This document shows, one piece after another, positions 2,317-56,066 of a DNA stretch of 64,000 bases. The notes beneath the pieces are model-generated. The model saw nothing but the letters and a program-made list of their open reading frames with translations, had not been told where the DNA came from and did not search any database. The stretch covers positions 2,529-66,528 of the forward strand of contig CAYOQI010000006.1 of assembly GCA_964406075.1 (NCBI GenBank). Reading direction: 5' to 3'. The translations under genes and the position numbers were made by a program. Position 1 is the stretch's first letter; each line of letters starts with the position of its first letter. The stretch is from an uncultured Pseudomonadales bacterium (GTDB lineage Bacteria; Patescibacteriota; Microgenomatia; UBA1400; PJMF01).

Positions 2317-2322
2317 TGCGGG

Positions 2323-2330: not shown

Positions 2331-2372
2331 ATATCAGAGGAAACAATAGTATTTTTTAAAAATTAAACGAAG

Positions 2373-2378: not shown

Positions 2379-2386
2379 TCTCGGAT

Positions 2387-3628: not shown

Positions 3629-3633
3629 CCAGC

Positions 3634-5442: not shown

Positions 5443-5451
5443 ACTCAGAAA

Positions 5452-15167: not shown

Positions 15168-15171
15168 GAAT

Positions 15172-16389
15172 TTATCTTCCAAATCCGGGAATTTGGAGAA
15201 CGTCTACCCCAATAAATCGTAAAATTGTCACTGAAAAAATAACGAATAGTATTCCAATCACTGCTGAACTAATCAAACTTTTACCTTCTTCGACTCTCTT
15301 TGGATCACCTTGAGAGGTTGAAAGTAGGAACGATCCTGCCAGTACCATGAGTACTACTACTCCACCCGCAATCCCTAAACCAATGGTCATCAGAGAACGA
15401 ATCATTAAGGTTACTCCACCCGTTGCATCACCGGATGCGGTCTTGTATGGGATACACCCTATAGCTGTCCAAATGCCATTGTTTTCGAAACAAGTATTAC
15501 ATAAAGAATAATTTGCCGTACCGGCTTGCTTACATAATTCGAACGGATCTCCAGATGCACCAGGGGCATCTTTATCTATTATGGTAAATGTTGAGTTATT
15601 AACCACACAATACCTAGTGGAATCACCGACAGCACCAGTTACTACTACCTGATATTGACCAGCCGGATGTGGCCCTGAATCTCGGGGTACTGTAGCAACT
15701 AACTGACCACCCGCAGCATCAATGAGTGTTAGAGACCCGGAAGCCTGGCTATCAGTCCTTTCTAAAAAGACATTGTAAGTTCCATCTACAAAACCGCTCG
15801 TCCCAGCACTGTCAATAATTAATCTCACTTGATGTGAGGAATTTACTTGTGTCCCAAGAGAGGGATTTCCATTTATAATTGGGGCGAACTGAAAAGAGTT
15901 ATTTGTACACTGAGTTGTAACTGTTTGTTTTTTCCTGACTAAAAAATTATCACCACAGATCACAATAGCGCTTGCAGGATCTCTTTTTCTCAGTTCCACT
16001 GTAACGTTCTGAGTCTGAGTCGGTGACATTGAAAAATTGTCGAAAATAGAAATAAGCTGGGATGAAACATCCATCTCGGATAAAGTTCCATTCGTCAAAG
16101 CACCTGACGGGATATCAACTGTAGCAAAAAATGGATTCCCTCGACTAATGTTTAGAACATATTCCCCATCCGCCGTTATAGGATTATCCTCAAAAATTGC
16201 ATTGGTAGCTGAAACACGAAGTTTGTCGTCAGGTAGATCGAAAACGGCATCACTGCCTGACCCAGAGAAAGTGAGATTACAACTATTCGCTGCTTTTACT
16301 TGAAGGGGAGTATAAAAAAGCCAGGACAATAACAACAAAAAAACTAAGAGGCTTTTTATCCTAAACTTCATACTCTTTGATTTTATCAT
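15172..16389 (-). CDS. Beta-rich extracellular domain fused to a C-terminal VirB2/TrbC-like T4SS pilin domain
   Basis: Signal peptide and ~300 aa of Thr/Ser/Gly/Val-rich sequence. Then 'CNTCFENNGIWTAIGCIPYK...' followed by two hydrophobic helices around 'STSQGDPKRVEEGKSLISSAV'. This matches the hairpin layout of the CPR-type T4SS pilin family. Confidence 0.65.
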   Translation of the reverse strand: MIKSKSMKFRIKSLLVFLLLLSWLFYTPLQVKAANSCNLTFSGSGSDAVFDLPDDKLRVSATNAIFEDNPITADGEYVLNISRGNPFFATVDIPSGALTNGTLSEMDVSSQLISIFDNFSMSPTQTQNVTVELRKRDPASAIVICGDNFLVRKKQTVTTQCTNNSFQFAPIINGNPSLGTQVNSSHQVRLIIDSAGTSGFVDGTYNVFLERTDSQASGSLTLIDAAGGQLVATVPRDSGPHPAGQYQVVVTGAVGDSTRYCVVNNSTFTIIDKDAPGASGDPFELCKQAGTANYSLCNTCFENNGIWTAIGCIPYKTASGDATGGVTLMIRSLMTIGLGIAGGVVVLMVLAGSFLLSTSQGDPKRVEEGKSLISSAVIGILFVIFSVTILRFIGVDVLQIPGFGR

Positions 16390-16485
16390 TTATCTTGGAA
16401 AAAATAGAACAGGGTGATTTTATGATCCTATAGTATTTTAATTGCCCTAGTGTATAATTTCTGCCATATTTCATACAATACGGTT

Positions 16486-18120
16486 ATGACTGAACATACA
16501 ACACATTCAACTCCACACACTGAAAACCCTGCTAAAAAAGGGTTTCCTTTTAAGGAATGGCTTCGTACTTGGAAAAACAGATTTAGAGAAGATCAATTTC
16601 CAAACGAACCACTACCAGTAAAAAACCCTGTAGATTTAGAAAAACTTAAAAAAGAGAATCCAACCAAAGAAGCAGAGTTTCGTAAATTTGCTGAAAAGGC
16701 CGCAACACAATTTCGAGAGAGAGCGAAAAACAATCCTGGAGCTAATCCTGATACTTTGCAACTTCTTTCATCCGATATTATTAATGAAATTCATCAACAA
16801 TTCCCAGCTGACGAAACGGCTCAGATGAATATTTTTACAATGACAAGAGATCTTGTTTCAGAAAATGCTCCTGTCCCACTCCCCCCAGAACCTCCACAAC
16901 CACCTAAAGATGAGCCCGGCAAAGAACCCAATTCGGAAACAAGAAAAAATGATATTAAAGAATGGGCCGAAGCCCTTGTAAAATTGAGAAAAGAGTATGA
17001 GGCAGATGGTAATCCACGCAATGAAGAAATTGAAAAGATTATTGAAGAAGCAAGACTAAAATATGGTAATGATGTAAGTAGTGAGATTTATGCAGAAAAA
17101 GATAGATTAATGGGAATAACAGCAGTGCCAGAAGCAGCGGAGCAAGAAAATAAACAAGAGGATGACAAACAAAAAAAACTAGGTTTTGCTACTGTATTAG
17201 CAAAACTTTCTCGCATACCAGACGTTGAGACACGCAAAAAGAACTTTGAAGATTTATTGCAACAAATGAGCGTTGCTTTTCCAAATAGCAATTCCCCTAA
17301 AATCTTTGAGGAAATAGGATTAATGGCAATAGAAATCAACAGTAAAGTTCAAGAATCAAGAACAACCACTGATGATACTTCTAACGAAGATACTGAGCAA
17401 AAAACTGATGTAGTAGATTCTGAAGCAGACCAAAGTCCTGAAAAAATTGACCAACAACAAACTGCAGTCACAGAAACTGTGCAACCCATTCCAGAAATCA
17501 CAGAAGCAACTGAACCTGAAGATCCTAATAAAGTTACAAACTATGACGAAATTCGAAGAAGACTTTTTGCCAGCGAGGGGTATGCACCACCAAAACCTCG
17601 CACGTCAGTGAGTTCAAAATCTGAACAACCTGTTGTAGCTAAAAAAGTTGATCCTGAACTTACACAAATCACCACAGATGGAAAAGCTGAAACCACACCA
17701 AACGAAGAACCGACGAATCCTGCCCCTGAGAACATCCAACCAGAAACAAACATCGAATCTGGACTGAAACAAGAAGACGGAAAAGTTTTTTATAATGGCA
17801 AAAAAGTGGACTTCTCACCACAAACTGAAGCCAAAGAATCAACAGCAGATGAAATACAACACATGAAAGAGATGATTAAAAATTTAGAATTGAATGTAAA
17901 TCTTATACCAGGGCAACCAGTCGAAATTAGTAATCAGCGTTTACGTTTAGAGTGGGAATACCAAAACAACACCCAAAAGGGAGCCAATTATTGGATTGAC
18001 GAAATTGTAGATTTTTCTGATCAAGGACTGCTTATTTTGGTTGAAAACCAAACGCTTTCTGATGAGAAGAAATACTACGGTGTCTCAGCCGTTGATTTGG
18101 AAATGTTAAAAAAAGTTTAA
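16486..18120 (+). CDS. Highly acidic, low-complexity (E/K/P/T/Q-rich) protein with a short folded-looking C-terminal domain
   Basis: ATG 16486 is preferred to GTG 16450 because TGTATAAT lies at 16451-16458. No TM segment. The composition is dominated by Glu, Lys, Pro and Thr. Confidence 0.5.
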   Translation: MTEHTTHSTPHTENPAKKGFPFKEWLRTWKNRFREDQFPNEPLPVKNPVDLEKLKKENPTKEAEFRKFAEKAATQFRERAKNNPGANPDTLQLLSSDIINEIHQQFPADETAQMNIFTMTRDLVSENAPVPLPPEPPQPPKDEPGKEPNSETRKNDIKEWAEALVKLRKEYEADGNPRNEEIEKIIEEARLKYGNDVSSEIYAEKDRLMGITAVPEAAEQENKQEDDKQKKLGFATVLAKLSRIPDVETRKKNFEDLLQQMSVAFPNSNSPKIFEEIGLMAIEINSKVQESRTTTDDTSNEDTEQKTDVVDSEADQSPEKIDQQQTAVTETVQPIPEITEATEPEDPNKVTNYDEIRRRLFASEGYAPPKPRTSVSSKSEQPVVAKKVDPELTQITTDGKAETTPNEEPTNPAPENIQPETNIESGLKQEDGKVFYNGKKVDFSPQTEAKESTADEIQHMKEMIKNLELNVNLIPGQPVEISNQRLRLEWEYQNNTQKGANYWIDEIVDFSDQGLLILVENQTLSDEKKYYGVSAVDLEMLKKV

Positions 18121-18169: not shown

Positions 18170-19921
18170 ATGGATAGTCGTTTCTTCTCTGAAAAAAAGC
18201 TGAAAACACTCCTTTTTGTGGTGTCTTTTTCTTTTGTTTTTTCTCAAATCTACAACAGTAAAAGCGTAGTTCCAACCAACCTTCTCCAATATCTAATATC
18301 CAATATCCAATCACCAACATATGCCATCGACCCTGTCGAAGAACTCCAGAATCAGATTAATGAACTAGATAAACTTAAAAAGCTATCTGAAGATGCAACC
18401 AAACCTCTCGAAAAAGAAATTGCTTCACTCAACCAACGCGTGAAAAATGCCCAAGCAGGAATTGACACTGCCAAGAAACAAGCAAGCACTCTAGCAGAAA
18501 ATATTGAGGAACGAGAAAACATGCTGGCAGATCAAATTGCACTCTTCTCTTATCGAGTGTCTGAACGGTATAAACAATCTCGCACTACCTCCCCTATTAC
18601 ACTACTACTAGCATCTACCAACGCCAATGATTTGACTCGAGATTTAGCCTATAAATCTTCAGCTGAGGAACAAGATAAACAACTCATTCAGAACCTGGGC
18701 GGTCAAATTTCAAAATTAGAAGAAGATAAAATAAAACTTGAAAGTGATCAGGTAAAGCTCGCTTCTCTTCAAACGCAATTGAACTCCCAGGCTGCTTTTT
18801 TCAAAAAAGAAGTTTCCGGCGCCAAAGCCTATCAACAAGAATTAACTGGCCAAATTGCCGCCATTTCTTCAAAACAACAGGAAATTATTAATGCCAGATC
18901 TGGATCTTTTACTGCATCTATTGGTGATAGCGAACTCGCCGATGACATTAATGCCTCGATCAAAGGATTTCGTGATTCTGCTCCTGCTGGTAGTTTTGCG
19001 GTGTTTTCATTTGGTGGGCACACTCATCGCAAAGGTATGAGCCAATATGGAGCTCGAGGTAGAGCTCAGGCTGGGCAAGACTTTAAAACAATTCTAAAAG
19101 CCTACTATGGGAAAGAGCCTGTCAGTAAAGATACTGGCGGAAGCATTAATGTGGCTGGACATGGGAGTATGGATTTCGAGACGACATATCTGTATGGGAT
19201 CGCTGAGATGCCTGCTAGCTGGCACAAAGAAGCTCTCAAAGCTCAAGCTGTGGCTGCTCGAACCTATGCGTATCGATATAAAGTGGACGGCAAACAAATT
19301 TGTACGACTGAAGCCTGTCAGGTTTTTAATCAATCAAAATCAAATAACGCACCGGAAGCGTGGAAAAACGCTGTCAATGAAACCAAAGGCCAAGTTCTCG
19401 AGGACGTTGTGACCTATTACGCTTCTACTCATGGTGGATTTGCTTCTCCCATTGGTTGGGATACCACTGACGGATCTGGTGGAGGCAACTTTATAGATAA
19501 ATCCTACGACAAGCTTGGTGGTTCACCTTGGCTTTACAAAGCCTGGTATACCAAAGGATACAGTTCTTCATCTGATAAATGTGGACGGTCCAATCCTTGG
19601 CTAAATGGTGAAGAGTTGGCCGATATCATCAATGCCGCCCGATTCAGAGATGATCGAGTGACTCCGATTACCACTTCCTGTTGGGGAGGAAATCCATACA
19701 GTCACGCCGAGCTGAGGGCTAAATCCGATGGTCCTTCTCGAGTAACCAGTGTCCGGGTCGAACAAGGCAATGGCGTTACTAATCGTGTGGTTTTCCAAAC
19801 AGATAAAGGTGAAATCAGCCTATCTGGAAGCGAGTTCAAGACTGCTTTCAGTCTGAGAGCTCCAGGCTATTTAGCCATCCCCCAAAGTAGCTTTGCCTTT
19901 TTCAATATCGAACAGAAGTAA
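18170..19921 (+). CDS. Membrane-anchored coiled-coil plus SpoIID/LytB-domain cell-wall remodelling protein
   Basis: N-terminal TM 'LLFVVSFSFVFSQIY' and a ~200 aa coiled coil. SpoIID blocks 'GMSQYGARGRAQAG', 'EALKAQAVAARTYA' and 'CTTEACQVF'. Confidence 0.75.
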   Translation: MDSRFFSEKKLKTLLFVVSFSFVFSQIYNSKSVVPTNLLQYLISNIQSPTYAIDPVEELQNQINELDKLKKLSEDATKPLEKEIASLNQRVKNAQAGIDTAKKQASTLAENIEERENMLADQIALFSYRVSERYKQSRTTSPITLLLASTNANDLTRDLAYKSSAEEQDKQLIQNLGGQISKLEEDKIKLESDQVKLASLQTQLNSQAAFFKKEVSGAKAYQQELTGQIAAISSKQQEIINARSGSFTASIGDSELADDINASIKGFRDSAPAGSFAVFSFGGHTHRKGMSQYGARGRAQAGQDFKTILKAYYGKEPVSKDTGGSINVAGHGSMDFETTYLYGIAEMPASWHKEALKAQAVAARTYAYRYKVDGKQICTTEACQVFNQSKSNNAPEAWKNAVNETKGQVLEDVVTYYASTHGGFASPIGWDTTDGSGGGNFIDKSYDKLGGSPWLYKAWYTKGYSSSSDKCGRSNPWLNGEELADIINAARFRDDRVTPITTSCWGGNPYSHAELRAKSDGPSRVTSVRVEQGNGVTNRVVFQTDKGEISLSGSEFKTAFSLRAPGYLAIPQSSFAFFNIEQK

Positions 19922-21932: not shown

Positions 21933-24900
21933 ATGGATCTAATAACTCAAAAAATCCCCGAGACTGTTAAATTAATTAGCAAATACGAAAAACGTCAAGA
22001 TGCTAGGTTAAATTTTCGTATTGCATCTGACTCTTTTTACTTTAACCCTCAATTCCTCACTCAACTTCGAGAAACTCTAGAAGATTTTAAGGCCAAACGT
22101 AATACATCTGAAACAGTACGTGTACATTTAGAGAGTCTTGGAATTGATGAAGTTGTTCTTTTCCGTGATTTTCGTAAATTATTCAATGTCATTATTACCC
22201 ACATCAACGAAGCAGATACTTTTATACAGTTTGATCCAAATCAACTTTTTTACGATGAAGAACTTTCTCCAAATGCCGATGATGACTCGGTTCGACATCA
22301 TGATGATCAAGGAATTGAAACCTATGAACTTCTAATTGATGAATTTAACTCTATTCATAAAAGAATTGAAGCTGGAGAAACCTCAGAAGAAATTGCTAGA
22401 GAACCTCGTCGAAAAGAAGAAATTAAAAAAGCTGTTGGAGAAAAAGGCGATACAGAAAAAGCTGCAAAGATACTTGCTGAATTACTCGCAGGACAACAAT
22501 CAACACAGACAGGTGGTGGTGAAGGTCAAACGGTATATCCAACAACTCCTTTAAATCAAAATGTTGTTTCTGCTTCACCATTTACTCCTGAACAAGCCTC
22601 TGTCGAATCAAGCATCGAACATGCCTTGGAGATGCTCCTTATTCGCGAAGTCGCTCGTGAGACAGTCATTCTCGAAAATCTTGTTATCAACACCTATGAC
22701 TTGTCCAAGTATGGCGTTACGAATCTTCCGCAAGGTTTAGAGGAAGTCATTCGAGCAAAAGTTCGTGAATCGATTCTGGGCTTAGATATTCACAAGTATT
22801 TAAAAGCTGATGGAACTTTGGATCAAACCAAGATTATCAGTCTCCGTGCCCACCTGATTCGACACGCGCTTCCAGCAGTCATGCAAAGTGCAATTTTCCA
22901 AGTGGGACTGGCAGAAATGGTTTCCTCCAATGAACGAGCTGTCCAACTGGCAATTGAAGAAGAAGTTCTCAATCAACGCATTGATGCTACCAAAGCTTTT
23001 CAAGACGATACGTTTAAAGATTTTTTCAAAGAACAAGTAGCCTTAGAAGTAATTGCCAAAGGCCTCGATCCTCGAGACATCATTAAAAACGGTAAATATG
23101 CTGAGGTTTTCTCACAAATTGACACAGGTGAACAAAGTAATTTAATTCAAAAGATTAAAGAGAGAGCTGAAGATATTCAAAAGAATGGATTACCGGAACA
23201 TGACACACTGGCTGAAATTTTTAAGAAAACCTCTGTTGAATCTGCAACTGCCTCCGCAATTTTTAGTGACAGCACAATCATTGCCTCTCTCACTCAAGAA
23301 TTTATTGAGACGAATCAACGAATACCTCGAGATTTTAATGAGCTTTATCAAAAGCTTCCCAAAGACTATCAAGAGCTTTTTCAAGTGTTATCTCCCAAAG
23401 AGCAAAATCTTATTTACGTCCGGTTTGTGCGAGTGTCTGAACGAATTCAAGTTGTCCTTCCAAGCGTTGCAATAACTCAAGGTAAAAGATTAACCCAAGA
23501 TGAAGTCAAGCAGGTCAAACTTGCTTTAGTCGGAATGGGTGGGTTTTTCGTTTCCGCAGATGAGAAAACCGATGATCAAGCTGAAAAGAGTTATTCCGAC
23601 GGACAGAAGAATAATTTTAGTAAAGATGTTTTAAAAGTCGCAGCTATATCTCAGCTGACAGACCAACGTATTTTTGAACGTGTTGTTCAGTCTGCTTTAA
23701 AACAACAGGACATCGCCAAACTGTTAGAAAATTCTTTTGATTTAGAACGGTGGTTCCCTCCAGAATACAAAGAATTATTTTCAGTGATTCCTCCGCAGGA
23801 TCGTCAGAGGTATTTGGCCAAGGTCCTGCATGCAGTTGAACAAACGCCCAAAGGTGGGTTCGGTCGAATCCTCAAAGACATGGTTGGGAGAAGAAAAGAT
23901 TTAAGCGTTACCGACATCTCAACTCTTTTTAGCAACGTTGATTTTTCAAAACTTCCACAAGGTGGAAGAGTCATTACTCCACAAGAATTTTTACAATTAG
24001 GAATTTTTACTCCAGAACAACAGCGTGAACTTGCCCGAGTTCAAAAAAATAATCCTGAAGGCATAAAATTGTTGCTTCGCTCGCTCAGAAAAGTAACGGA
24101 CTCTGACAATGGTGGATTACTCAATGCACCTGCTTCACAGAAACTTCAAGAAAAATATGAGCAGATAAAATCTGATCGACAATTGATTGAATCCGGTTTA
24201 ACGCAGTTACTAAAATCTCATGGAATCGATGGTGCTGATCAGCAAGTCATACTTCGACTGCTTCATGCCTATGGTTTAACCAACTCCGCTATCCCGGATC
24301 TTCAGCCAAACATGGAAGCGCTCTACAAACAGTATGGTGGCCGGCTCAAGGGACGCATTGATGATTTACAGAGACAACTCAAGTCTGCAAGAAAAACCGA
24401 CAAAATTCGAGAACTCAACGAAGAGTTAATTCGCAGTCATGCATTGCTCAATAATTTAAAAAACTTCACTGAAGTATTAGCAACTTCTCAGATAGCTCAG
24501 CTTTCAGCCGAAGAATTTGTCCGACAAAAGAAGTCAGTTCGATTACAACAGCTCGCTGAACAAACCTCATCTGAAATGTCTCAAGGTGAACTTGAACAAC
24601 TCATTCAAGAAGAAGAGACTGCCCGACTCCTAGAAATGAATGCGTTGTTGGAACAATACAACGAAGCGGTCATTGCGGATGCAGTCTTCCAATCAGAGCT
24701 ACATAATCGAGATATCGCACACGTTCAGCAAGTGCACGCCCTCCGTGGATTGATGTTGGCTCAGATGAGTGAAGCCGACCAACGACAAATTGCAGATGCA
24801 TTAGAAGTAAATACTGAAAATCCTGACTGGATGGATCAACTCCGAACGAATGTTCAAGTCAGAGGTTTTGGCAACGATTTTCCCAATCTTGGAGCGTATA

Positions 24901-26486
24901 ACCAGTCCAGTTCTGCTCTTTCCAGATTGTCAAACTGGAGAGATCGACTAAATCGACTGAAGTCATTCAAAGGCAAAGCAGTTAAAAAGTTGGCGGGAAA
25001 AATTACCAAAGAAGGGCTTAAAAAAGTTGTTGTTGCGGTTGCTCCTGCACTAGGAGCTGGCGCGGCAGCCGCATTGATAGCTAAATTACTTGGAGCAACT
25101 GTTCAAGTTGCTGCTGGAGCCGGACTCGGCGGGGTTGTTGGCGGTGGTATCGGTTTCCTCGTTGGAGGACCGCTAGGTGCAGTAGCTGGTGGTGCAATAG
25201 GAGGTTTTCTTGGTGGTGCACTTAGTAGCTCAATCGGTGGGGAAACTCTCGTTGGTGGAAAAGCTTTAGCAAGTGATCTAGCAAGCACTGCGGGAAAAGC
25301 AGCTCAAACAGCAGGAAAAGCGTTAGTGGAAGGTGCCACAAACACCGTAACCGCTTCCACCATTTCTCCAACCCTAGGAGTTCCAGTCGGTGCTGTTGTC
25401 GGAGGGACCGTGGCCGGGATAGGTGCCCTCGGAGCTTTCACACTCATGACAGTTCTCGGTGCATTTCTCCCTGATGCCAGCTCTGAATTCGTAGGGTCGG
25501 GTGAAATTTCCCGATTTGTAGAAATTCGAAAATCTGCTTCACCTAAAGCGATTAATAATAATGAAGAAAGAGAGATTAATTACACCATCACAATTTCACC
25601 GAAGGCTGGGTATACCATTACTCCTACGGATATTACCGATACTTTTAGTTATTTAGGTGGGACAAGTCTTTCTTTAACAGATCAAACAGCCCAAATTCTG
25701 AGTTTGTCGGACGGACCAAAAATCGGACAAGCAATTACAGAACCAATCACTTTTAACTACAGTACCTCAATGCAAGGCGTCGATGTTTTAGTGATCAATA
25801 AATTCACACTTGCTTTTACGGCTACAAGAGAAGGTGAATCAGAAGTTGATGAGCTGTCTCGCTCTGCTTCAGTTCGAATTGGAAATCCGAAAGTTGGGTG
25901 CATTGAATTTGGACCCGGGGGATATTACTTCCAATCTGATAGACCTCAGACAACGATTGAGTGGCCTGAAGAAGATAAAAACAGACTTTTGGAAGCATTT
26001 ACTCGGAGACTAGGCACAAATACCTCAGCTATGGAACTACTTTGTGCTGATGGGCAACCTATTACAGTTTATCGACTAAACATACCAAGTGGCATAGGTT
26101 ATCATGGCTTTAAAAACGGGTTAACTTTAGGTTTCTATACTGCAGCATTTGGGAATAATGATAATTTAGAGTATGTACTCACACATGAGCTTGGACATAT
26201 TTTAGATGAAAAAAATCCAGGCCTTCTCCAAGAATTTGCCAGAGCTCAAACGACAAATGACTGCTTTAGTTATCCTTTTGGTTGTGCCGTAGCAGAAGCA
26301 TTTGCAGAAGGATTTGCCGACTTCATCGTCTATACCACCAGACCTTTTGGGGCATATGATGACCCTGGAACTCTAGGAAATGATGGCTACAACTTTAAAG
26401 CCCGGTGGCCAAATGAGTTTCAATGGTTCAAAGACAATGTATTTGGAGGAGAAGAGTGCGACGTAAGTAGTTGTACAGTTCAGTAA
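21933..26486 (+). CDS. Giant (1517 aa) membrane-spanning protein: ~1000 aa helical N-terminal region, Gly/Ala-rich TM block, C-terminal exodomain with an HExxH zincin-like motif
   Basis: Continuous 4.55 kb ORF. Gly-zipper-like hydrophobic region encoded at about 25021-25490 ('GAGLGGVVGGGIGFLVGGPLGAVAGGAIGGFLGGAL'). 'LTHELGHILDE' is encoded at 26184-26198. Cys-rich C-terminus. Confidence 0.65.
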   Translation: MDLITQKIPETVKLISKYEKRQDARLNFRIASDSFYFNPQFLTQLRETLEDFKAKRNTSETVRVHLESLGIDEVVLFRDFRKLFNVIITHINEADTFIQFDPNQLFYDEELSPNADDDSVRHHDDQGIETYELLIDEFNSIHKRIEAGETSEEIAREPRRKEEIKKAVGEKGDTEKAAKILAELLAGQQSTQTGGGEGQTVYPTTPLNQNVVSASPFTPEQASVESSIEHALEMLLIREVARETVILENLVINTYDLSKYGVTNLPQGLEEVIRAKVRESILGLDIHKYLKADGTLDQTKIISLRAHLIRHALPAVMQSAIFQVGLAEMVSSNERAVQLAIEEEVLNQRIDATKAFQDDTFKDFFKEQVALEVIAKGLDPRDIIKNGKYAEVFSQIDTGEQSNLIQKIKERAEDIQKNGLPEHDTLAEIFKKTSVESATASAIFSDSTIIASLTQEFIETNQRIPRDFNELYQKLPKDYQELFQVLSPKEQNLIYVRFVRVSERIQVVLPSVAITQGKRLTQDEVKQVKLALVGMGGFFVSADEKTDDQAEKSYSDGQKNNFSKDVLKVAAISQLTDQRIFERVVQSALKQQDIAKLLENSFDLERWFPPEYKELFSVIPPQDRQRYLAKVLHAVEQTPKGGFGRILKDMVGRRKDLSVTDISTLFSNVDFSKLPQGGRVITPQEFLQLGIFTPEQQRELARVQKNNPEGIKLLLRSLRKVTDSDNGGLLNAPASQKLQEKYEQIKSDRQLIESGLTQLLKSHGIDGADQQVILRLLHAYGLTNSAIPDLQPNMEALYKQYGGRLKGRIDDLQRQLKSARKTDKIRELNEELIRSHALLNNLKNFTEVLATSQIAQLSAEEFVRQKKSVRLQQLAEQTSSEMSQGELEQLIQEEETARLLEMNALLEQYNEAVIADAVFQSELHNRDIAHVQQVHALRGLMLAQMSEADQRQIADALEVNTENPDWMDQLRTNVQVRGFGNDFPNLGAYNQSSSALSRLSNWRDRLNRLKSFKGKAVKKLAGKITKEGLKKVVVAVAPALGAGAAAALIAKLLGATVQVAAGAGLGGVVGGGIGFLVGGPLGAVAGGAIGGFLGGALSSSIGGETLVGGKALASDLASTAGKAAQTAGKALVEGATNTVTASTISPTLGVPVGAVVGGTVAGIGALGAFTLMTVLGAFLPDASSEFVGSGEISRFVEIRKSASPKAINNNEEREINYTITISPKAGYTITPTDITDTFSYLGGTSLSLTDQTAQILSLSDGPKIGQAITEPITFNYSTSMQGVDVLVINKFTLAFTATREGESEVDELSRSASVRIGNPKVGCIEFGPGGYYFQSDRPQTTIEWPEEDKNRLLEAFTRRLGTNTSAMELLCADGQPITVYRLNIPSGIGYHGFKNGLTLGFYTAAFGNNDNLEYVLTHELGHILDEKNPGLLQEFARAQTTNDCFSYPFGCAVAEAFAEGFADFIVYTTRPFGAYDDPGTLGNDGYNFKARWPNEFQWFKDNVFGGEECDVSSCTVQ

Positions 26487-26498
26487 TTAGGATTCATT

Positions 26499-27092
26499 AT
26501 GGAAAAACCACTTAAAACAAAAACTACGACTCTTACATTTTGGAAAGAATATTGGTATGTAGCTGTAGGAATATTGATATTTGTGTTGCTGATCATTTCT
26601 CAAATCGTACGAATATTGACCCCAACAGTGGTACCTATTCAAGAAAATTCTTGGAAAGAAGTCACTCCTGGATACTCATCACTAGATCAAGTCACGGAAA
26701 AGCTCGGGCCACCACTTACTTCAGAGCCAACTAACCTTGGAACTGCACTGTATTATCAATCTGACTTCCCAGTCTATCCCAATGAGGTGATTATTGATCA
26801 GACCAATACCGTCCAATTTATCAAAGAATATATTGTGTATGATCCCAATCATCTACTTTCTCAATATATTGAACAATTTGGACAACCAGACCTCGAACTA
26901 TTCACTGAAGAAACTGGATCTGCAAGGCAAGCCAATGTCTTTTTAACGAAAGGGCTTGTCATCATTTCTCATATTTCAGGTGGAACCGTCGAACAAAAAT
27001 GGTACTTCACTCCCACGACAAAAGATGTATTCATGCGTTCCTGGGGAAATACACTCACAGACAAAGACGAAGGTCATGGATTTGCACCATAG
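26499..27092 (+). CDS. Bitopic membrane protein (N-terminal TM anchor plus ~150 aa exodomain), function unknown
   Basis: 'YWYVAVGILIFVLLIISQIV' TM segment. Tightly linked (12 nt) behind the giant gene. Confidence 0.5.
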   Translation: MEKPLKTKTTTLTFWKEYWYVAVGILIFVLLIISQIVRILTPTVVPIQENSWKEVTPGYSSLDQVTEKLGPPLTSEPTNLGTALYYQSDFPVYPNEVIIDQTNTVQFIKEYIVYDPNHLLSQYIEQFGQPDLELFTEETGSARQANVFLTKGLVIISHISGGTVEQKWYFTPTTKDVFMRSWGNTLTDKDEGHGFAP

Positions 27093-27316: not shown

Positions 27317-28582
27317 ATGCGAGAACACGCCGTTCCACAAAATGTCACCAGCTATGAGTTCCACTTGATTGGGAACATGACACTGAAGCAGTTTTTAGAA
27401 CTGGCAGCTGGAATTGTTTTGGCTGTAATTGTGTATCGGACAAACCTTCCGAATTTGATCAAAATTCCCATTGCCGTAGTTTCTGCAAGTATCGGCGCCA
27501 TGATCGCCTTTGTGCCTTTCGAAGGACGACCTCTCGATAGATGGTTCATCGCATTCGTAAGAGCGATTTATAAACCCACCGAATTTTACTGGCGAAAAAC
27601 TGGGCACATCCCTGATTTTTTGACCTACACTCCATCACAAAAAAACACACTCGTCGATGAGGTTGATTTAACCCCATACAAACGTCAAAGAATTATGGAG
27701 TTCATTGGCACACTTCCAGCCAATTCCCAACTCCAAATGATTGATTTAGAGGAAACCCAACGCCTCAATGGTCTTACTTCTCTATTTGACGAAGTAGAAG
27801 TTACTCACGATGTGGTGACCGCAATTCCATTAGAACCAGAAAAACCATCAGTTACTCTTGAGCCTCACGTGCTTAAACCGATTGAACAAATTCAAGACAC
27901 CGACTTACCAAGAGCTGTTTCTATTCCTGAAGAACTAACACAAACAGAGCCCGTTCAATTTGACCCACAAACGATTCCTGTTTCACTATCGCCACTTCCC
28001 CAATCAGGAATTTTGAATAATGATCAATCATTCGCTCAGCAAGAAGTCGTCTTTGAAGCACAAATTCAGCCACAAGATACGTCACAACTAGCACAATCAA
28101 ATCAACAAACTTCCCAAGAAGTAATCATTCCAGGTCAAGATACTATTGCGGTTAACCCTCAACAAAAACCTGACGCAAATGTTTCCAATGTTTCGAATTC
28201 ATCTAATTCTGTTGACATTTTCTCGGCGGCAACTCCCATTCAACAAGTCCAACCGACTCAACAAGCTACTACTTCAAATACTCTACCTTTCCCTAAAAAA
28301 CCAACTATTCCCAACCTCATTGTTGGAATGGTATTTGATCCAGAAGGAAAAATTGTAGATAATGCCATTGTGGAGATTACAGATATGGAAGGAGTCCCGG
28401 TTCGAGCAGTGAAGTCGAATTCTATCGGACAATTCTTTATCACCACCCCATTGAAAGATGGTGGATACATTGTGAACACCGAAAAAGTTGGCTTTCATTT
28501 TCCAAATCTGTCTTTGGAATTAAAAAATGATTTAGTTGATCCTTTATCAATATCAGCAGATTCTATTGAGAACTTATCATGA
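27317..28582 (+). CDS. PrgI-family (VirB3-like) T4SS membrane protein with a long Gln/Pro-rich linker and a C-terminal carboxypeptidase-regulatory-like beta-sandwich
   Basis: N-terminus 'VPQNVTSYEFHLIGNMTLKQFLELAAGIVLAVIVY', then a second TM (PrgI-like pattern). C-terminus 'IVGMVFDPEGKIVDNAIVEITDMEGVPVRAVKSNSIGQFFITTPLKDGGYIV' (CarboxypepD_reg-like). Confidence 0.55.
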   Translation: MREHAVPQNVTSYEFHLIGNMTLKQFLELAAGIVLAVIVYRTNLPNLIKIPIAVVSASIGAMIAFVPFEGRPLDRWFIAFVRAIYKPTEFYWRKTGHIPDFLTYTPSQKNTLVDEVDLTPYKRQRIMEFIGTLPANSQLQMIDLEETQRLNGLTSLFDEVEVTHDVVTAIPLEPEKPSVTLEPHVLKPIEQIQDTDLPRAVSIPEELTQTEPVQFDPQTIPVSLSPLPQSGILNNDQSFAQQEVVFEAQIQPQDTSQLAQSNQQTSQEVIIPGQDTIAVNPQQKPDANVSNVSNSSNSVDIFSAATPIQQVQPTQQATTSNTLPFPKKPTIPNLIVGMVFDPEGKIVDNAIVEITDMEGVPVRAVKSNSIGQFFITTPLKDGGYIVNTEKVGFHFPNLSLELKNDLVDPLSISADSIENLS

Positions 28583-29484
28583 AAAACGGCACCGCCATCA
28601 CTTCCACTAGTCAGCTCTTTCTCAATTTGTTTGACATTACGAATGACTTGATCATCCTTGATGACGGTGCGGCCACAATGGTGCTCATGGTTTCAGCCAT
28701 GAACTTCGGACTGCTTTCAGAAGACGAACAAGATGCCACGATTTACGCCTACGCTGCGTTACTCAATTCTTTAAGTTTTCCAACTGAAATTGTTATTCGT
28801 TCTCAACCAAAAGACGTCTCTATTTACTTGCGTTACATTGCACAAAAAGAAAAAGAAACTGCGAATCCGTTATACAAACGTCGTATTAAAGACTACCGAG
28901 AGTTTGTCGAGTCACTCGTTCATGAACAAAATGTGCTTGATAAAAAATTCTACTTCGTGATTCCGTTAAGTGCGGTCGAAATGGGTTTAACTCCAACTAG
29001 TGTCATGCCTGGAGCCAAAGCAAAACCGATTACGAGTTATGATAAAAACTACATCATTGAAAAAGCTCGAACCAATCTCGAACCTCGTCGTGATCATTTG
29101 ACTGACCAGCTGGCTAGAATTGGTTTATATTCACGCCAATTAACCACTCAAGAGCTGATTCAAATGCTTTACTCGTCATACAATCCAGAATCATTTGAAG
29201 GGCAAAAAGTGACCGATACTCAAAATTACACGACTCCTTTAGTTGAGGCCAAACTTCAAGCTCCGCCCGCGCCGGTTCCAACGGAACAACAAGTACCAAG
29301 TCCAACTGTTGAGGCTTCAGCCTCTCAACCGACCTTTGCTCCTCAAAACGCACAGCCCGTTGCCCAACAATATCCAACCGAACAACTTCAAATTAACCAA
29401 GAAGTTGACCAAGCAAACGTGTTAGCCCAACAAGTCGGTGTTGATCAGTCGTATCTAGCTCAACCTGAAGGAACACAAACATAA
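28579..29484 (+). CDS. VirB4 N-terminal-domain-like protein without an ATPase domain
   Basis: 'LFDITNDLIILDDGAATMVLMVSAMNFGLLSEDEQDATIYAYAALLNSLSFPTEIVIRSQP' follows the pattern of the N-domain of Gram-positive VirB4/PrgJ/Orf16-type ATPases. No Walker motifs. 4-nt overlap with the PrgI-like gene. Confidence 0.5.
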   Translation: MKNGTAITSTSQLFLNLFDITNDLIILDDGAATMVLMVSAMNFGLLSEDEQDATIYAYAALLNSLSFPTEIVIRSQPKDVSIYLRYIAQKEKETANPLYKRRIKDYREFVESLVHEQNVLDKKFYFVIPLSAVEMGLTPTSVMPGAKAKPITSYDKNYIIEKARTNLEPRRDHLTDQLARIGLYSRQLTTQELIQMLYSSYNPESFEGQKVTDTQNYTTPLVEAKLQAPPAPVPTEQQVPSPTVEASASQPTFAPQNAQPVAQQYPTEQLQINQEVDQANVLAQQVGVDQSYLAQPEGTQT

Positions 29485-29494
29485 GGAGTATTCC

Positions 29495-31378
29495 ATGAGT
29501 CCATCGATTTCACTTCCATTCCCTTTCGGAAAAAAGAAAGTGAAAGAGGAAGATCCAGCTCAAAAAAAGATTGAAGAAAATCAACTCGTTTTAAAGCAGT
29601 TTGCTCGCGGGTTAGTCAGTATTCAAGACATTATTGCTCCAGAAGCGATTGAGGTTGATTTTACCTATCAAAAAATCAATTCTACTTACACTCGAACATT
29701 TTTTATCGCTGGATATCCTCGTACCGTTCCTGCCAACTGGCTTTCACCACTGATCAACTTCCCACATCGGGCAGATATTGCCATGTACATTTTTCCGGTC
29801 GAAGTGCAGAAAATCATGGATGATTTACGCCGAAAAATCACAGAAATGGAAGCCGAAATTCAGTCAGACATCCGTGCTGGAAAAATCAGCAACATTAATA
29901 CTGAAGTGAAACTTGAAGATGCTCGCTCACTGCAAGAACAATTGGCCAAAGGTGCGGAGCGGTTTTTCCAATTTGGTTTGTATATTACGATTTTTGAAAG
30001 TTCTAAAGATCGCCTCGAAGCTATTACCAAACAACTTCAATCACTCCTCGGAAGTTTGCTTATTGTTTCAAAAAAAGCCTCATTACAAATGGAGGATGGA
30101 TTTAAGACAACCCTTCCCATGGGTGTCGATCGATTGTTAATTACTCGTAATATGGATACGACTTCCTTGGCAACGACATTTCCATTTACTTCGTCTGAAT
30201 TAACGATGGATACCGGCATTGTGTATGGCTTGAATGAACACAATGGTTCGTTAGTCATCTTTGATCGTTTCAGTTTAGAAAACGCCAACATGGTAGTATT
30301 CGCGAAGTCTGGAGCTGGAAAATCCTACACTATTAAGCTGGAAGCCTTACGTCAGCTCGTTTTCGGAACTGATATTTTAATTCTCGACCCCGAACACGAG
30401 TATGAAGATATGTGTACAGCTGTCGGTGGTGAGTACATTAACTTCACTTTTGGATCAGATACAAAAATCAATCCGTTTGATTTATCTGCTGTCTACGAAG
30501 AAGGTGAGAATGAGTTGGGTCAAAAAATCATTTCATTACATTCATTATTAAAAGTCATGCTTGGTCAGATGACAGCTACGGAAGAAGCTACTTTGGATCG
30601 AGCGCTCGTCGCAGCCTACAAGGCCAAAGGTATTACACCTGATCCCGCAACCCAAGCCAATGAACCACCTTTAATGGAAGATCTTTATAAAGCATTGATT
30701 GGTATGGAAAATGATGAAGCCGCTGGTCTGGCTGCTCGGTTAGAAAAATACATCACGGGATCTTTCCGCGGAATTTTTGATCAAAAATCTAATCTCGATA
30801 TCAACAACTCTTTCACCGTTTTTTCTGTCAAAGAATTACATGACGAACTTCGTCCGATTGCCATGTTCATTATCTTAGATTTTATGTGGACTCGAATTAA
30901 GAAAAAGTTAAAAAAACGTATCTTGATTGTCGACGAGGCTTGGTACTTCATGAAGTACGCGGATTCAGCTTCATTCTTACACTCGATGTCAAAACGCGCT
31001 CGAAAATACTACCTCGGGATTACCACTATTACTCAAGACGTAGAAGACTTTTTAACCAATGATTATGGAAAAGCGATTGTGACGAACTCTTCGATTCAAT
31101 TCTTGATGAAACAATCAAGCGCATCGGTTCCTGTTTTAACAGAAACATTCTATCTTTCTCAAGGAGAACAACGATTACTCTTGGCATCCGATGTGGGAGA
31201 AGGTATTTTCTTCGCAGGAACCAATCATGTGGCTTTACGAGTAATCGCTTCACCAGAAGAGCATGAATTGATTACCACTGATCCTGAAGAACTCTTGGCT
31301 CGTCAAAAAATGGCTCAGCAACAAGCTGCTCAAGCTAAAGTCTTGAACGACCGACAAACCACGAACTTAATGAGTTAA
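29495..31378 (+). CDS. virB4: VirB4/PrgJ-type T4SS ATPase
   Basis: Walker A 'VVFAKSGAGKSYT' (GAGKS encoded at 30311-30325) and Walker B 'RILIVDEAWYF'. Also 'ITTITQDVEDF' and an N-domain 'IAPEAIEVDFTYQKINSTYTRTFFIAGYPRTV'. Confidence 0.85.
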   Translation: MSPSISLPFPFGKKKVKEEDPAQKKIEENQLVLKQFARGLVSIQDIIAPEAIEVDFTYQKINSTYTRTFFIAGYPRTVPANWLSPLINFPHRADIAMYIFPVEVQKIMDDLRRKITEMEAEIQSDIRAGKISNINTEVKLEDARSLQEQLAKGAERFFQFGLYITIFESSKDRLEAITKQLQSLLGSLLIVSKKASLQMEDGFKTTLPMGVDRLLITRNMDTTSLATTFPFTSSELTMDTGIVYGLNEHNGSLVIFDRFSLENANMVVFAKSGAGKSYTIKLEALRQLVFGTDILILDPEHEYEDMCTAVGGEYINFTFGSDTKINPFDLSAVYEEGENELGQKIISLHSLLKVMLGQMTATEEATLDRALVAAYKAKGITPDPATQANEPPLMEDLYKALIGMENDEAAGLAARLEKYITGSFRGIFDQKSNLDINNSFTVFSVKELHDELRPIAMFIILDFMWTRIKKKLKKRILIVDEAWYFMKYADSASFLHSMSKRARKYYLGITTITQDVEDFLTNDYGKAIVTNSSIQFLMKQSSASVPVLTETFYLSQGEQRLLLASDVGEGIFFAGTNHVALRVIASPEEHELITTDPEELLARQKMAQQQAAQAKVLNDRQTTNLMS

Positions 31379-31399
31379 ATAAGAATTAAGAAAAAAGCT

Positions 31400-31759
31400 G
31401 TGGATATACATTTTCATAAAGAGCCTAAAAAAGAATATATTCCACCAGTTTTGGAAGTTGTTGGCCAAGCTGTCAAACCTAATCTTAAATCACTTCATTT
31501 GGAGTTCTTCGACAAAACTTTACACAAACGATTTACCATAGAGGAATTAAGAAAATTGGCTAAAGAGCATACTTTAATCATTAGTGAGACAAAAAGAGAC
31601 GAGAACGACGAAATAAACCTGACTTCCTATAGTATTAATAAAATGTTTGACGATAATGGTAAAGAAATTCCTATGGCCGAATACTCTGATGATGTCAACT
31701 CTCCACATCGTGTCGGCGGTATAACAGTAGAAGATAATAGGAAAAGAAATACTCTTTAA
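31400..31759 (+). CDS. Small hydrophilic hypothetical protein (GTG start)
   Basis: ORF only. It follows virB4 by 21 nt; no motif recognised. Confidence 0.35.
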   Translation: MDIHFHKEPKKEYIPPVLEVVGQAVKPNLKSLHLEFFDKTLHKRFTIEELRKLAKEHTLIISETKRDENDEINLTSYSINKMFDDNGKEIPMAEYSDDVNSPHRVGGITVEDNRKRNTL

Positions 31760-33404: not shown

Positions 33405-33683
33405 TTTTCCACAACTGTGGAAAAGTACGTGTACAACCCTGTGGATTTACTGTGGGGTTTTATTAGCTTGAGGTGTGGATATGTGTGTAACGTTTTTCTT
33501 ACCTTCGCTACTTATCCTCTTTATCCACATTTGTCCACATTTTTATCCACACCTTTACCCACCTATTTCAACACGAATAAAAAGCGAACTACTCAATGAC
33601 TTTGCGCTATTTATTCCTTTTATCCGCAGTTCTACTATCTATTACTACTAATTTATATATATATTTTCTATACTCCAGCCACT
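33405..33683. other. oriC: DnaA-box cluster plus AT-rich unwinding region between dnaA and dnaN
   Basis: Boxes: TTTTCCACA (33405-13) and TGTGGAAAA (33416-24) forming a perfect palindrome; TGTGGATTT (33440-48); TGTGGGGTT (33451-59); TGTGGATAT (33474-82); TTATCCACA (33521-29); TTGTCCACA (33531-39); TTATCCACA (33543-51); TTTACCCAC (33554-62); TTATCCGCA (33620-28). Then an AT-rich run 'attactactaatttatatatatattttctatact' at about 33641-33675. Confidence 0.85.
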
Positions 33684-41828: not shown

Positions 41829-44051
41829 TTACTTCGTTGGCCAGGCAGAAGAAATAAGTAACTCTTCATTTTCAATTAACTTAGCTTCTTTGAGTTCTTT
41901 CCAAACCGCTTCCGTGACGAACGGTAAAAACGGATGAAGCAGTTTTAAGAAAGTCGTTAAACCTCGAGTAATTGCGGCCCAAGACAACTCACCTTTTTTA
42001 GCTTGTTCAATACATTGATCACAAAACCAATGCCAGAACTCGTTGTAGACGGTTTCAGCAGCTAGACCAATCTTCAGATCATCGAGTTGTTTTGTTACTT
42101 TTTTAGTTACTTCTTCGAGATGTAAATAGAAATCTTGATCGGCAACATTTGGTTCTTGGCTCTTTGATTCAAGATCTTCGAGATTGGTGATAACAAATCG
42201 AGTTGCGTTCCAAATTTTATTCGAAAAGTTTCGCATGCCTTTAACTTTCATTTCTCCTACAGCTGAGTCACTCCCTGGTGTAGTGGACATGACGAGTGCC
42301 ATTCTCAGTGCATCGGCTCCATATTTTTCTACTAGATCTAAAGGATTAATAACATTGCCTTTACTTTTACTCATTTTTTGACCTTTTTCGTCTCGAACAA
42401 GTCCATGGAGATAGACATCTTTAAACGGAGTTTTTCCGGTCAAATAAATCCCAAGTAACATCATTCTCATCACCCAGAAGGGGAGAATGTCATAACCTGT
42501 TTCCATGACAGAAGTAGGGTAGAAGCGGTCAAAGTCGTTAACTTGATTTGTTTTTAATGTCACTACCGGCCACTGTCCAGAAGAGAACCATGTATCGAAG
42601 GTATCAGTTTCCTGAAGAAAATTTTCACCTGGGGAAGTAGTAGAAACAGTGAATGTTGCTTTTGACGGAGCAGTTAACTGTTGTAACCCTTTTTGAATTT
42701 CCTCAGTAGAAAAATCCTTTTGTAAATCTTTAATAACACCGGTCTGTGTCTCACCTTTTGTGTCAATAAAACGAATAACTAACTCAGGATTTTCTTCAAC
42801 TGAATACCACACTGGCATTCGGATTCCCCAGACAATTTGACGAGAAATATTCCAGTCTTTCAGATTTTCTAGCCAATGTCGCAGGATCTTATCTCGACCA
42901 GCTCCATGAATTCGCGTTTCCTTATTATCTAAAACTTCTAGTGTTTTTTCGACTAAAGGTTTGACTTTGATGAAAAATTGAGGCAAGGGAAGTGGTTCTA
43001 AAACGGTTCCACATCGATAACACACACCGATCGTATTGGTGTAATCTGTTTTAGTGGGTTGTGCTAATAATCCTTTTTCGGCTAAATCTTTCTCAATTTG
43101 TTCTCGAGATATTTTAACTTTCAAACCAGCGTATTTCCCAGCAACTTCTGTTAACTTCCCATCGAGCCCAATGACTTGCTTTGGCTCAGGCATTTCTTCT
43201 TTGTGACGTTGCCAGACTTCAAAGTCGTTAAAGTCGTGATATGGAGTAATCTTCACGACTCCAGTTCCAAACTCGCGATCAACATACTCATCTGCAACTA
43301 CTTTCATCTTGAATTTTCCCAGCAAGCCTTCGACTTCAATTTCTTGACCGATGTACTGTTTGTACCGATCATCTTCTGGATGAACAGCTACAGCAGTATC
43401 AGCAAACTTCGTTTCCGGTCGAGTAGTTGCTAACGTGAATGGTCCATACTTGAGGTAGTAAAGTTTTGAAGTTTGTTCAACGTGATTGACTTCCAATTCA
43501 GAGTAACTAGTACCGCACTTAGTGCAGAAATTAACAAGACGTAAATCGCGATACACCAATTCATTTTTATGTAGGTCTTGAAATGTATTCAACACAAATT
43601 CGACGATTTCAGGATTTAGCGTGAACTTAAATCTTGACCAATCCGCACTTGCACCGAGTCGTTTCATTTGATTTACCGCCACTCCGGAGTTTTCTTGCAC
43701 ATACTCCCAGATCATTTTGTAGAGGGTTTCTCGATCGAATTGAAAACGAGATTTGCCTTGTTTACTGAGTTTTTTCTCAAACACAAACTGTGTTTCAATC
43801 CCAGCGTGATCAGTACCTGGAATCCAAACCGTGTCATCACCTTTCATTCTGTGATAACGGATTAAAATATCCTCAAGTGCCACAAACATCGCATGACCGA
43901 TGTGAAGGGGATCATTAGCATTAGGTGGAGGCATGATGATAGAGAAGGAGGGTGATTTAGATTTCTGAGTATCTGGAGTAAATGCTTTAGCTTTTTCCCA
44001 AAGTTCATAGATTGGTTGTTCGTATTGGTTGTGGTTATAAGATTTTTCCAT
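41829..44051 (-). CDS. valS: Valyl-tRNA synthetase (short form)
   Basis: 'PPPNANDPLHIGHAM' (HIGH), 'WIPGTDHAGIETQ', 'KMSKSKGN' (KMSKS). The N-terminus is typical of ValRS. Confidence 0.9.
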   Translation of the reverse strand: MEKSYNHNQYEQPIYELWEKAKAFTPDTQKSKSPSFSIIMPPPNANDPLHIGHAMFVALEDILIRYHRMKGDDTVWIPGTDHAGIETQFVFEKKLSKQGKSRFQFDRETLYKMIWEYVQENSGVAVNQMKRLGASADWSRFKFTLNPEIVEFVLNTFQDLHKNELVYRDLRLVNFCTKCGTSYSELEVNHVEQTSKLYYLKYGPFTLATTRPETKFADTAVAVHPEDDRYKQYIGQEIEVEGLLGKFKMKVVADEYVDREFGTGVVKITPYHDFNDFEVWQRHKEEMPEPKQVIGLDGKLTEVAGKYAGLKVKISREQIEKDLAEKGLLAQPTKTDYTNTIGVCYRCGTVLEPLPLPQFFIKVKPLVEKTLEVLDNKETRIHGAGRDKILRHWLENLKDWNISRQIVWGIRMPVWYSVEENPELVIRFIDTKGETQTGVIKDLQKDFSTEEIQKGLQQLTAPSKATFTVSTTSPGENFLQETDTFDTWFSSGQWPVVTLKTNQVNDFDRFYPTSVMETGYDILPFWVMRMMLLGIYLTGKTPFKDVYLHGLVRDEKGQKMSKSKGNVINPLDLVEKYGADALRMALVMSTTPGSDSAVGEMKVKGMRNFSNKIWNATRFVITNLEDLESKSQEPNVADQDFYLHLEEVTKKVTKQLDDLKIGLAAETVYNEFWHWFCDQCIEQAKKGELSWAAITRGLTTFLKLLHPFLPFVTEAVWKELKEAKLIENEELLISSAWPTK

Positions 44052-49335: not shown

Positions 49336-49342
49336 TAATAAA

Positions 49343-55938: not shown

Positions 55939-56028
55939 ACAATTTCTTTCCGTTTAAATGCAAATAATGTGTGTCTATAGGCATAGTACACGTTTCAAGA
56001 ACGATTTCAAGTTTCCCTCAGTACAGCC

Positions 56029-56059: not shown

Positions 56060-56066
56060 GTTTGTC

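Follow-up and report, generated by a model that had tools for sequence, protein, structure and literature searches.

A probable vertically inherited chromosomal type IV secretion system with VirB4 in two pieces beside dnaA in a Microgenomatia contig

Results and Discussion

We analyzed a 64,000-nucleotide (nt) stretch of DNA (hereafter the window: contig CAYOQI010000006.1, positions 2,529–66,528, of assembly GCA_964406075.1), which is titled as an uncultured Pseudomonadales bacterium and is placed by GTDB in the Patescibacteriota (Microgenomatia; UBA1400; PJMF01). Upstream of dnaA, the window carries an operon of three genes, prgI-trsD-virB4. We consider it very probable that this operon belongs to a chromosomal, vertically inherited type IV secretion system (T4SS) of Microgenomates/Pacebacteria-type Patescibacteria (the candidate phyla radiation), that the system descends from monoderm conjugation machinery of the MPF_FATA type, and that its VirB4 is encoded in two pieces.

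All three genes lie on the forward strand. The first, prgI (27317–28582; 421 amino acids, aa), encodes a protein with a Pfam PrgI domain; the product of trsD (28579–29484; 301 aa) has weak matches to the N-terminal part of VirB4 models and to TrsD/TraD; and virB4 (29495–31378; 627 aa) encodes a CD1110-type VirB4 with Walker A and B motifs. According to the open reading frame (ORF) coordinates, the last 4 nt of prgI are shared with trsD and a gap of 10 nt separates trsD from virB4, a spacing that would favor equimolar synthesis of the products. The ORF calls agree with a preliminary description of this region, made from the letters and ORF translations without database searches, which had reported these three genes and had called the apparatus Gram-positive in type; the MPF_FATA/CD1110 assignment of VirB4 (377 bits) supports the latter.

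TrsD and the short VirB4 as complementary halves

The 627-aa protein scored 377.3 bits on NF045971 (CD1110; cutoff 325), with residues 29–581 covering model positions 173–734 of 752, and in Pfam it matched P-loop_TraG (E = 5.6e-27), AAA_10, DUF87 and CagE_TrbE_VirB. Its Walker A (AKSGAGKS) and Walker B (ILIVDE) motifs are located at residues 270 and 476, respectively. The VirB4 models were all entered far from their first position (CD1110 at 173, VirB4_plasma at 281, TIGR00929 at 235). When plasmids were searched with tblastn, the full-length Firmicute VirB4 proteins measured 797–949 aa, and the window protein aligned to them only from about residue 200. These comparisons indicate that the protein, in which the RecA-like ATPase domain is preceded by just the second half of the N-terminal domain of VirB4, is N-terminally short and lacks the first ~170–200 positions of full-length models; it is not the full VirB4 of the preliminary description.

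The 301-aa TrsD protein contains neither a Walker A nor a Walker B motif, and it matched nothing in the copy of Pfam that we used, which does not include PF26593. Among NCBIfam models, it aligned to VirB4_plasma at model positions 111–233 (E = 2e-9), to CD1110 at positions 115–172 (TrsD residues 149–206) and to the TrsD/TraD model NF041427 (E = 6e-4). By these matches TrsD is a remote homologue of TrsD/TraD that falls below the NCBI membership threshold. A profile of the TrsD core aligned to the N-termini of five full-length Firmicute VirB4 proteins with a probability of 98.3% and E = 2e-14 (hhalign), in agreement with the earlier impression of a Walker-less protein resembling the VirB4 N-domain. 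The match is convincing only against this alignment of five N-termini and weak against one full-length VirB4 (E = 0.0019, probability 14%).

The two proteins cover adjoining parts of the same models. On CD1110, TrsD ends at position 172 and VirB4 begins at 173; on the C. botulinum VirB4, TrsD aligns to residues 25–196 and the window VirB4 starts at about 204. We also joined TrsD residues 1–210 to VirB4 residues 29–627 in silico and scored this fusion on VirB4 models. On VirB4_plasma the fusion gave a single envelope spanning positions 112–893 of 894 and the score rose from 260 to 300 bits; on CD1110 it rose from 377 to 398 bits and on SCO6880 from 38.5 to 60.9 bits, and on TIGR00929 the start of the envelope moved from model position 235 to 23. 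The TrsD profile had no similarity to the 627-aa VirB4 of the window (hhalign E = 0.58). At the level of sequence, TrsD is the N-terminal part of VirB4 (~200 residues) made as a separate protein, with the short VirB4 as its complementary half. Of the two possibilities left in the preliminary description, a split or a duplicated VirB4 N-domain, the complementary coordinates bear out the split, and the lack of similarity between the two proteins speaks against a duplicated paralogue.

The closest plasmid relative of the window VirB4 (38% identity), in a Pontibacillus megaplasmid, measures 621 aa and is preceded by a TrsD-like protein of 274 aa. This same split places the fission before, or independent of, the Patescibacteria.

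Stand-alone TrsD proteins are widespread, with 1883 homologues found in a search of 5.8 billion proteins; a look-up of contigs encoding exactly the window TrsD gave no record. The best 120 of these are 249–479 aa long, almost all bear PF26593.2 as a precomputed label, and the named sources among them are Patescibacteria, Pacebacteria or Microgenomates. The core (residues 1 to ~228) has 57 invariant columns among 17 sequences (53–86% identity) and is followed by a disordered tail that is rich in P, Q, T and A and very variable in length. Such strong conservation of the core in many homologues is incompatible with a recent frameshift or a pseudogene. In many homologues the P/T/Q-rich tail is followed by a conserved PPLPEI at the very C-terminus, which looks like a short linear docking motif; it is missing from the window TrsD and its closest relatives.

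An AlphaFold2 (AF2) model of the TrsD core (mean predicted local distance difference test score, pLDDT, 70.5; predicted template-modeling score, pTM, 0.62) was compared with the Protein Data Bank (PDB) using Foldseek. Chains of R388 TrwK/VirB4 made up the best nine matches and 12 of the top 27, and nucleoside-diphosphate kinases and methyltransferases appeared from rank 10. A search of PDB sequences with the TrsD-core profile gave no match even at E = 10.

A long PrgI with a C-terminal beta-sandwich

The Pfam PrgI domain occupies residues 6–87 of the 421-aa protein (34.2 bits, cutoff 27), and a hydropathy scan placed two transmembrane (TM) helices within it, at about 21–39 and 50–68. Beyond this hairpin, the protein continues through a ~230-aa linker rich in Q, P and T into a C-terminal beta-sandwich resembling CarboxypepD_reg, whose match in the window protein itself (residues 335–394, 24.2 bits) is below the cutoff. 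The C-termini of the orthologues confirm the sandwich that had been read from the sequence, since all 41 of 41 match CarboxypepD_reg (PF13620; best E = 1.2e-9). PrgI was long in every related locus that had it (77/77, 310–656 aa). Together, the uniform length and the PF13620 matches make the beta-sandwich extension a clade-wide feature. We predict that the sandwich is cytoplasmic, by analogy, considering that PrgI has just two TM helices and that VirB3-VirB4 fusions are known; in Vescimonas fastidiosa pMM35_02 (2005–4833), for example, a 942-aa "PrgI family protein" spans a whole VirB4.

Conserved gene order beside dnaA and the chromosomal setting

To place the operon among its relatives, we used 80 loci encoding TrsD relatives from a one-genome-per-species collection, counting as informative those with enough flanking DNA. 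The order PrgI-TrsD-VirB4 on one strand was kept in 60 of 64 informative loci, and in 57 of these 60 dnaA followed directly downstream in the same orientation, with dnaN, yidC and jag beyond it. The conserved order and the constant position at dnaA point to vertical chromosomal inheritance rather than a mobile element. Most of the syntenic records carry the names Patescibacteria, Pacebacteria, Microgenomates or Woesebacteria, and other labels were taken as wrong. The labels of records and homologues lend indirect support to a placement of the window VirB4 in the monophyletic Patescibacteria clade. We note that many syntenic records are titled "uncultured Pseudomonadales", "Vitreimonas", "Methylococcaceae" or "Limisphaerales", though they are clearly Patescibacteria; they share the PrgI-TrsD-VirB4-dnaA synteny, and the taxonomy labels of these metagenome-assembled genome records are unreliable.

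In the window, dnaA is followed by dnaN, rnpA, yidC and jag. Inside the dnaA-dnaN spacer (33405–33683, strand not assigned), seven DnaA boxes, two perfect and none with more than one mismatch, are clustered at 33405–33628, and two further boxes lie upstream of dnaA. The cumulative GC skew has its minimum at 34–36 kb of the window. Together with the box cluster, this puts the end of the T4SS operon ~2 kb from the probable origin of replication (oriC), a feature of the chromosomal context outside the machine itself, and bears out the location beside oriC that had been described before.

The distance to dnaA needs to be corrected. The conserved operon ends with virB4 at 31378 and dnaA starts at 31896, 517 nt past that end; the ~140 nt reported earlier rested on an ORF of 119 codons with a GTG start (31400–31759, forward strand) between virB4 and dnaA, which NCBI annotates as a gene. 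This ORF had zero homologues in the 80 related loci, even at E = 10, and we treat it as an orphan on that ground. A DnaA-box-like site, ATATCCACA (31399–31407), overlaps its start, and in relatives the VirB4-dnaA spacer has a median of ~351 nt. The ORF is probably an orphan or spurious reading frame in the dnaA upstream region, outside the system. A scan for promoters and terminators found fewer sites than in shuffled sequences and was uninformative.

Mobility genes were looked for by Pfam scans of the non-nested ORFs of at least 110 aa, except rnpA and the ORFs at 55971–56306, 61708–62079 and 63388–63744. Among the scanned ORFs of the 64-kb window, no relaxase, VirD4/TraG coupling protein, integrase or plasmid Rep was found (att repeats were not searched). 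The scans instead gave housekeeping functions, such as recF, recA, thioredoxin reductase, uppS, a sigma factor and a class I aminoacyl-tRNA synthetase (41829–44051). The GC content was flat across the window (0.37–0.45), with the T4SS operon equal to its flanks. The earlier claims that the surrounding 64 kb hold no such genes and that the apparatus is chromosomal and non-conjugative are consistent with these results and with the position at dnaA.

Comparison with known systems

The arrangement was published between 2023 and 2025, and the window copy is a real but ordinary example of it. A 2025 survey by Quinonero-Coronel et al. (PMC12102498) describes a monophyletic Patescibacteria VirB4 clade related to MPF_FATA, in which TrsD, a remote homologue of the VirB4 N-terminus, is the component most abundant next to virB4. 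The survey also reports the lack of a relaxase, PrgI/VirB3 homologues and arrays of VirB2-like pilins (the latter especially abundant in Microgenomatia), a frequent site beside dnaA, dnaN and rnpA in Paceibacteria and Microgenomatia, relaxases in only 103 Patescibacteria genomes, homologues of the type IV coupling protein (T4CP) in many genomes but mostly far from virB4, and few VirB6/VirB8 matches in Microgenomatia, which is ascribed to divergence. Every element of the preliminary finding and its interpretation has already been published for Patescibacteria.

Measured against the Patescibacteria-clade T4SS so described, including that of Southlakia epibionticum ML1 (Wang et al. 2023), the window shares the PrgI/VirB3-TrsD-VirB4 set, the MPF_FATA-type VirB4, PF18895 pilin genes near virB4, the lack of a relaxase and of a T4CP next to virB4, and the chromosomal site beside dnaA, dnaN and rnpA; we see no difference in kind. 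Beyond what we saw in the survey, the window clade shows the long PrgI with its beta-sandwich, a VirB6 candidate recognized by fold only and two conserved upstream proteins. The 2025 paper uses neither "split" nor "shorter", and the explicit complementarity of TrsD and VirB4 is a small refinement of it.

According to the same survey, MPF_FATA systems of the pGO1/pSK41/pIP501 type likewise have a small Walker-less TrsD/TraD, remotely related to the VirB4 N-terminus, immediately upstream of a short VirB4 (TrsE/TraE). They are plasmid-borne and conjugative, with relaxase and T4CP, unlike the window, and the window TrsD differs from theirs by its long disordered tail and its low score on the TrsD model (19.6 bits, cutoff 200). 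The best plasmid relatives of the window VirB4 in the tblastn search were Firmicute and Actinobacterial. In the megaplasmid of Pontibacillus sp. ALD_SL1 (NZ_CP062975), genes for a pilin-like protein, a large protein, a 116-aa protein, the TrsD-like protein and VirB4 follow each other in the order of the window, and the TrsD-like protein aligns with the whole window TrsD core (hhalign E = 2e-24). That locus differs in its Firmicute host, its megaplasmid setting away from dnaA, its short PrgI-like protein and a peptidoglycan metalloendopeptidase downstream.

In VirB4 proteins made as one polypeptide, the division is not seen. The model positions of the full-length CD1110 VirB4 of C. botulinum pCDC3875 (797 aa) are covered collinearly by TrsD plus the 627-aa protein, and R388 TrwK/VirB4, which has a Walker A/B ATPase like that of the window and which the TrsD model resembles, likewise carries its N-terminal domain (residues 15–400; PMC9259494) in a single chain, whereas the window has two genes with the break inside that domain.

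Candidate further components upstream

The system had been called minimal, which does not hold within the window. On the reverse strand, two VirB2-like pilin genes lie in tandem. One (14382–15182) encodes 266 aa with an N-terminal extension, a signal-like N-terminus, a C-terminal TM helix and a PF18895 (T4SS_pilin) match of 27.8 bits (cutoff 26.6). The other (15172–16389) encodes 405 aa with two C-terminal TM helices; its PF18895 score of 26.3 bits falls just under the same cutoff, and it matched the NCBIfam Mbov_0395 pilin-like model (E = 9.5e-4). Downstream of them on the same strand, a gene for a 1250-aa protein (10607–14359) has no match in Pfam or NCBIfam and has a homologue upstream of the T4SS operon in three related loci. 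It is possibly co-transcribed with the pilin genes, and its membership in the system is uncertain.

A candidate VirB6-like polytopic membrane protein of 553 aa, with a signal peptide and ~7 TM helices, is encoded on the forward strand at 8861–10522. No Pfam or NCBIfam family matched it, and BLASTP detected no similarity to a CD1112 VirB6. The protein belongs to a conserved, unannotated Patescibacteria family (254 homologue matches). When its AF2 model (pLDDT 73.9) was compared with the PDB by Foldseek, the top five matches were all chains of the R388 stalk (260–272 residues, probability 0.80–0.92), which we take to be TrwI/VirB6, the search tool naming just the complex. The fold comparison thus offers a weak but specific candidate: the protein may be a divergent VirB6, and perhaps the "missing" VirB6 of Microgenomatia.

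Two further membrane proteins are encoded next to the operon on the forward strand, both conserved in related loci. Directly upstream of prgI, a 197-aa bitopic protein (26499–27092; TM helix 21–39) was found at the equivalent position in 21 of the 80 loci. Its size and topology resemble VirB8/PrgL, and neither PDB nor Pfam profile comparisons gave support for a VirB8/NTF2 fold. Its upstream neighbor is a giant protein of 1517 aa (21933–26486) with a hypervariable N-terminal part of ~1000 aa, a Gly-rich TM cluster (1032–1178), a conserved domain and a C-terminal metallopeptidase-like domain with an HExxH...E motif. A homologue search with the C-terminal 518 aa gave one hit, being swamped by Gly-rich low-complexity candidates, and ORFs of the related loci were used instead. 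The C-terminal third is kept upstream of prgI in 42/80 loci, and 22 of these 42 have the HExxH...E domain, in which H239, E240, H243 and E276 (domain-alignment numbering) are invariant and four Cys are conserved. In Pfam and PDB profile searches the domain had a marginal match to anthrax lethal factor (E = 0.03). A metallopeptidase that is secreted or anchored and has a link to the T4SS is a possible identity of the protein. Matches of the C-terminal domain to pentatricopeptide (PPR) repeats were discounted as spurious.

Between the pilin genes and recF, a gene on the forward strand (18170–19921) encodes a protein with a SpoIID/LytB domain and a long N-terminal coiled coil, which might be a peptidoglycan-remodelling (VirB1-like) partner. 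It adjoins the gene for a 556-aa acidic, low-complexity protein of no family (16450–18120). Farther upstream, 2387–8719 contains ATP-grasp enzymes (2387–4545 and 6435–7730), a MATCAP-like carboxypeptidase (5452–6438) and a 7TM_transglut membrane protein (7730–8719), a cluster that looks like a peptide-ligation or peptide-modification module unrelated to the T4SS. The ORFs at 398–1114, 4546–5442, 8861–10522, 10607–14359, 16450–18120, 21933–26486, 49063–49434, 53642–54604, 55375–55938 and 60288–60797 matched no Pfam family.

Proposed mechanism and alternative explanations

The prgI-trsD-virB4 operon very probably encodes the energizing complex at the cytoplasmic membrane. In R388, VirB3 wraps the VirB4 N-terminal domain, and this domain mediates VirB4 dimerization (PMC9259494). 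By analogy, the PrgI TM hairpin would anchor TrsD and VirB4 to the membrane, and TrsD would dock onto the short VirB4, completing its N-terminal domain with the ~200 initial residues supplied in trans. The assembled hexameric ATPase could then drive the extraction and polymerization of the VirB2-like pilins, with a VirB6-like protein as the platform; the genes for both lie 11–18 kb upstream. For the 301-aa protein, which had been proposed as a regulatory or structural subunit of the ATPase, a regulatory role is less likely than that of an indispensable structural part of the N-terminal domain of VirB4.

As to function, we infer a role in host-cell contact or exchange, and not in conjugation, because relaxase and T4CP are missing and the system of S. 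epibionticum is reported to be essential. The transposon-sequencing study of Wang et al. 2023, as reported by PMC12102498 and PMC12857230, found the TrsD homologue, PrgI, VirB6, VirB4 and the pilin array to be essential for epibiotic growth of S. epibionticum, and the T4CP not to be. A 2025 FEMS review (PMC12857230) describes this as the first T4SS essential for its own bearer and speculates that signals, or molecules taken up from the host, pass through a conduit made up of the pilus and the T4SS. In a 2026 preprint, putative T4SS pili are shown at a parasite-host interface, and a Minisyncoccota VirB4 is linked to the transfer of macromolecules in a parasite that feeds on RNA. The roles in pilus formation or adhesion, protein delivery or DNA uptake suggested in the preliminary description agree with what has been proposed in the literature (PMC12102498 and PMC12857230).

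Nonetheless, several points weigh against our reading of the operon and its partners. The score of TrsD on NF041427 (19.6 bits) is far from the curated cutoff of 200, and its best Foldseek match is weak in absolute terms (E = 0.013, probability 0.97, template-modeling score 0.36–0.42 as TMq), as are the structural matches of the 553-aa protein (E = 0.13–0.4). The binding of TrsD to VirB4 and to PrgI is a prediction by analogy. Housekeeping genes, recF among them, lie between the operon and the genes for the pilins and the VirB6-like protein, whose joint function with the operon is something we infer. The basis is one ~68-kb contig.

An inward-running machine for the uptake of host DNA, RNA or other macromolecules, like archaeal Ced or H. 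pylori ComB, in place of an exporter or a device for pilus-based adhesion, is a possible but rather unlikely explanation. The window VirB4 has weak matches to CedB (42 bits) and CedD (24 bits), no T4CP or relaxase is encoded nearby, and both the uptake from the host considered in the FEMS review and the RNA-feeding parasite of the preprint would fit. The Ced matches, however, reflect generic ATPase similarity (the 42 bits for CedB compare with a cutoff of 700), CedA-like genes were not recognized in the window, and the direction of transport is not readable from sequence; moreover, deletion of comEC in S. epibionticum abolished competence and spared viability (PMC12857230). A more specific scheme seems to us a long shot, namely that the PrgI beta-sandwich and the disordered tails of PrgI and TrsD, all predicted from VirB3 topology to be cytoplasmic, form a substrate-docking platform in place of the coupling protein, giving a T4CP-independent split-VirB4 machine that moves host-derived macromolecules such as RNA instead of DNA-relaxase complexes.

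We regard it as very improbable that the operon is the remnant of an integrative and conjugative element that has lost its relaxase, coupling protein and integrase or carries them beyond the window. All recognizable components are homologous to monoderm conjugation genes, the closest plasmid relatives reside in conjugative or mobilizable Firmicute plasmids, and T4CP homologues occur elsewhere in many Patescibacteria genomes (PMC12102498). Against this stand the absence of relaxase, T4CP, integrase and Rep from the Pfam scans, the lack of a compositional island, the rarity of relaxases in Patescibacteria reported in the same survey, and the site between housekeeping genes and dnaA, whose retention in 57 of 60 species-level genomes argues for ancient vertical inheritance; an age of this synteny equal to that of the class is largely shown. 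Least credible of all is that the 301-aa gene arose by duplication of the N-domain as a paralogue that regulates a complete VirB4, or that the pair is a recently broken VirB4 pseudogene, for although two adjacent ORFs both match VirB4 models, their model coordinates are complementary and non-overlapping, TrsD lacks similarity to the 627-aa protein, which itself lacks the region that TrsD covers, and the split is conserved, with 1883 homologues, 57 invariant core columns and a long tail of its own in TrsD.

Implications

Our favored reading, a vertically inherited chromosomal T4SS with VirB4 in two pieces, makes the window one more case of the published PrgI-TrsD-VirB4 arrangement beside dnaA. 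To this the analysis makes modest additions: the explicit complementarity of TrsD and the short VirB4 as halves of one VirB4, a conserved gene fission that is also present in a Firmicute megaplasmid, as well as a clade-wide beta-sandwich on PrgI, a fold-level VirB6 candidate for Microgenomatia and two conserved unannotated neighbors that may be further components. The importance lies with the system itself, as the Patescibacteria T4SS is the only one reported to be essential for the survival of its bearer.

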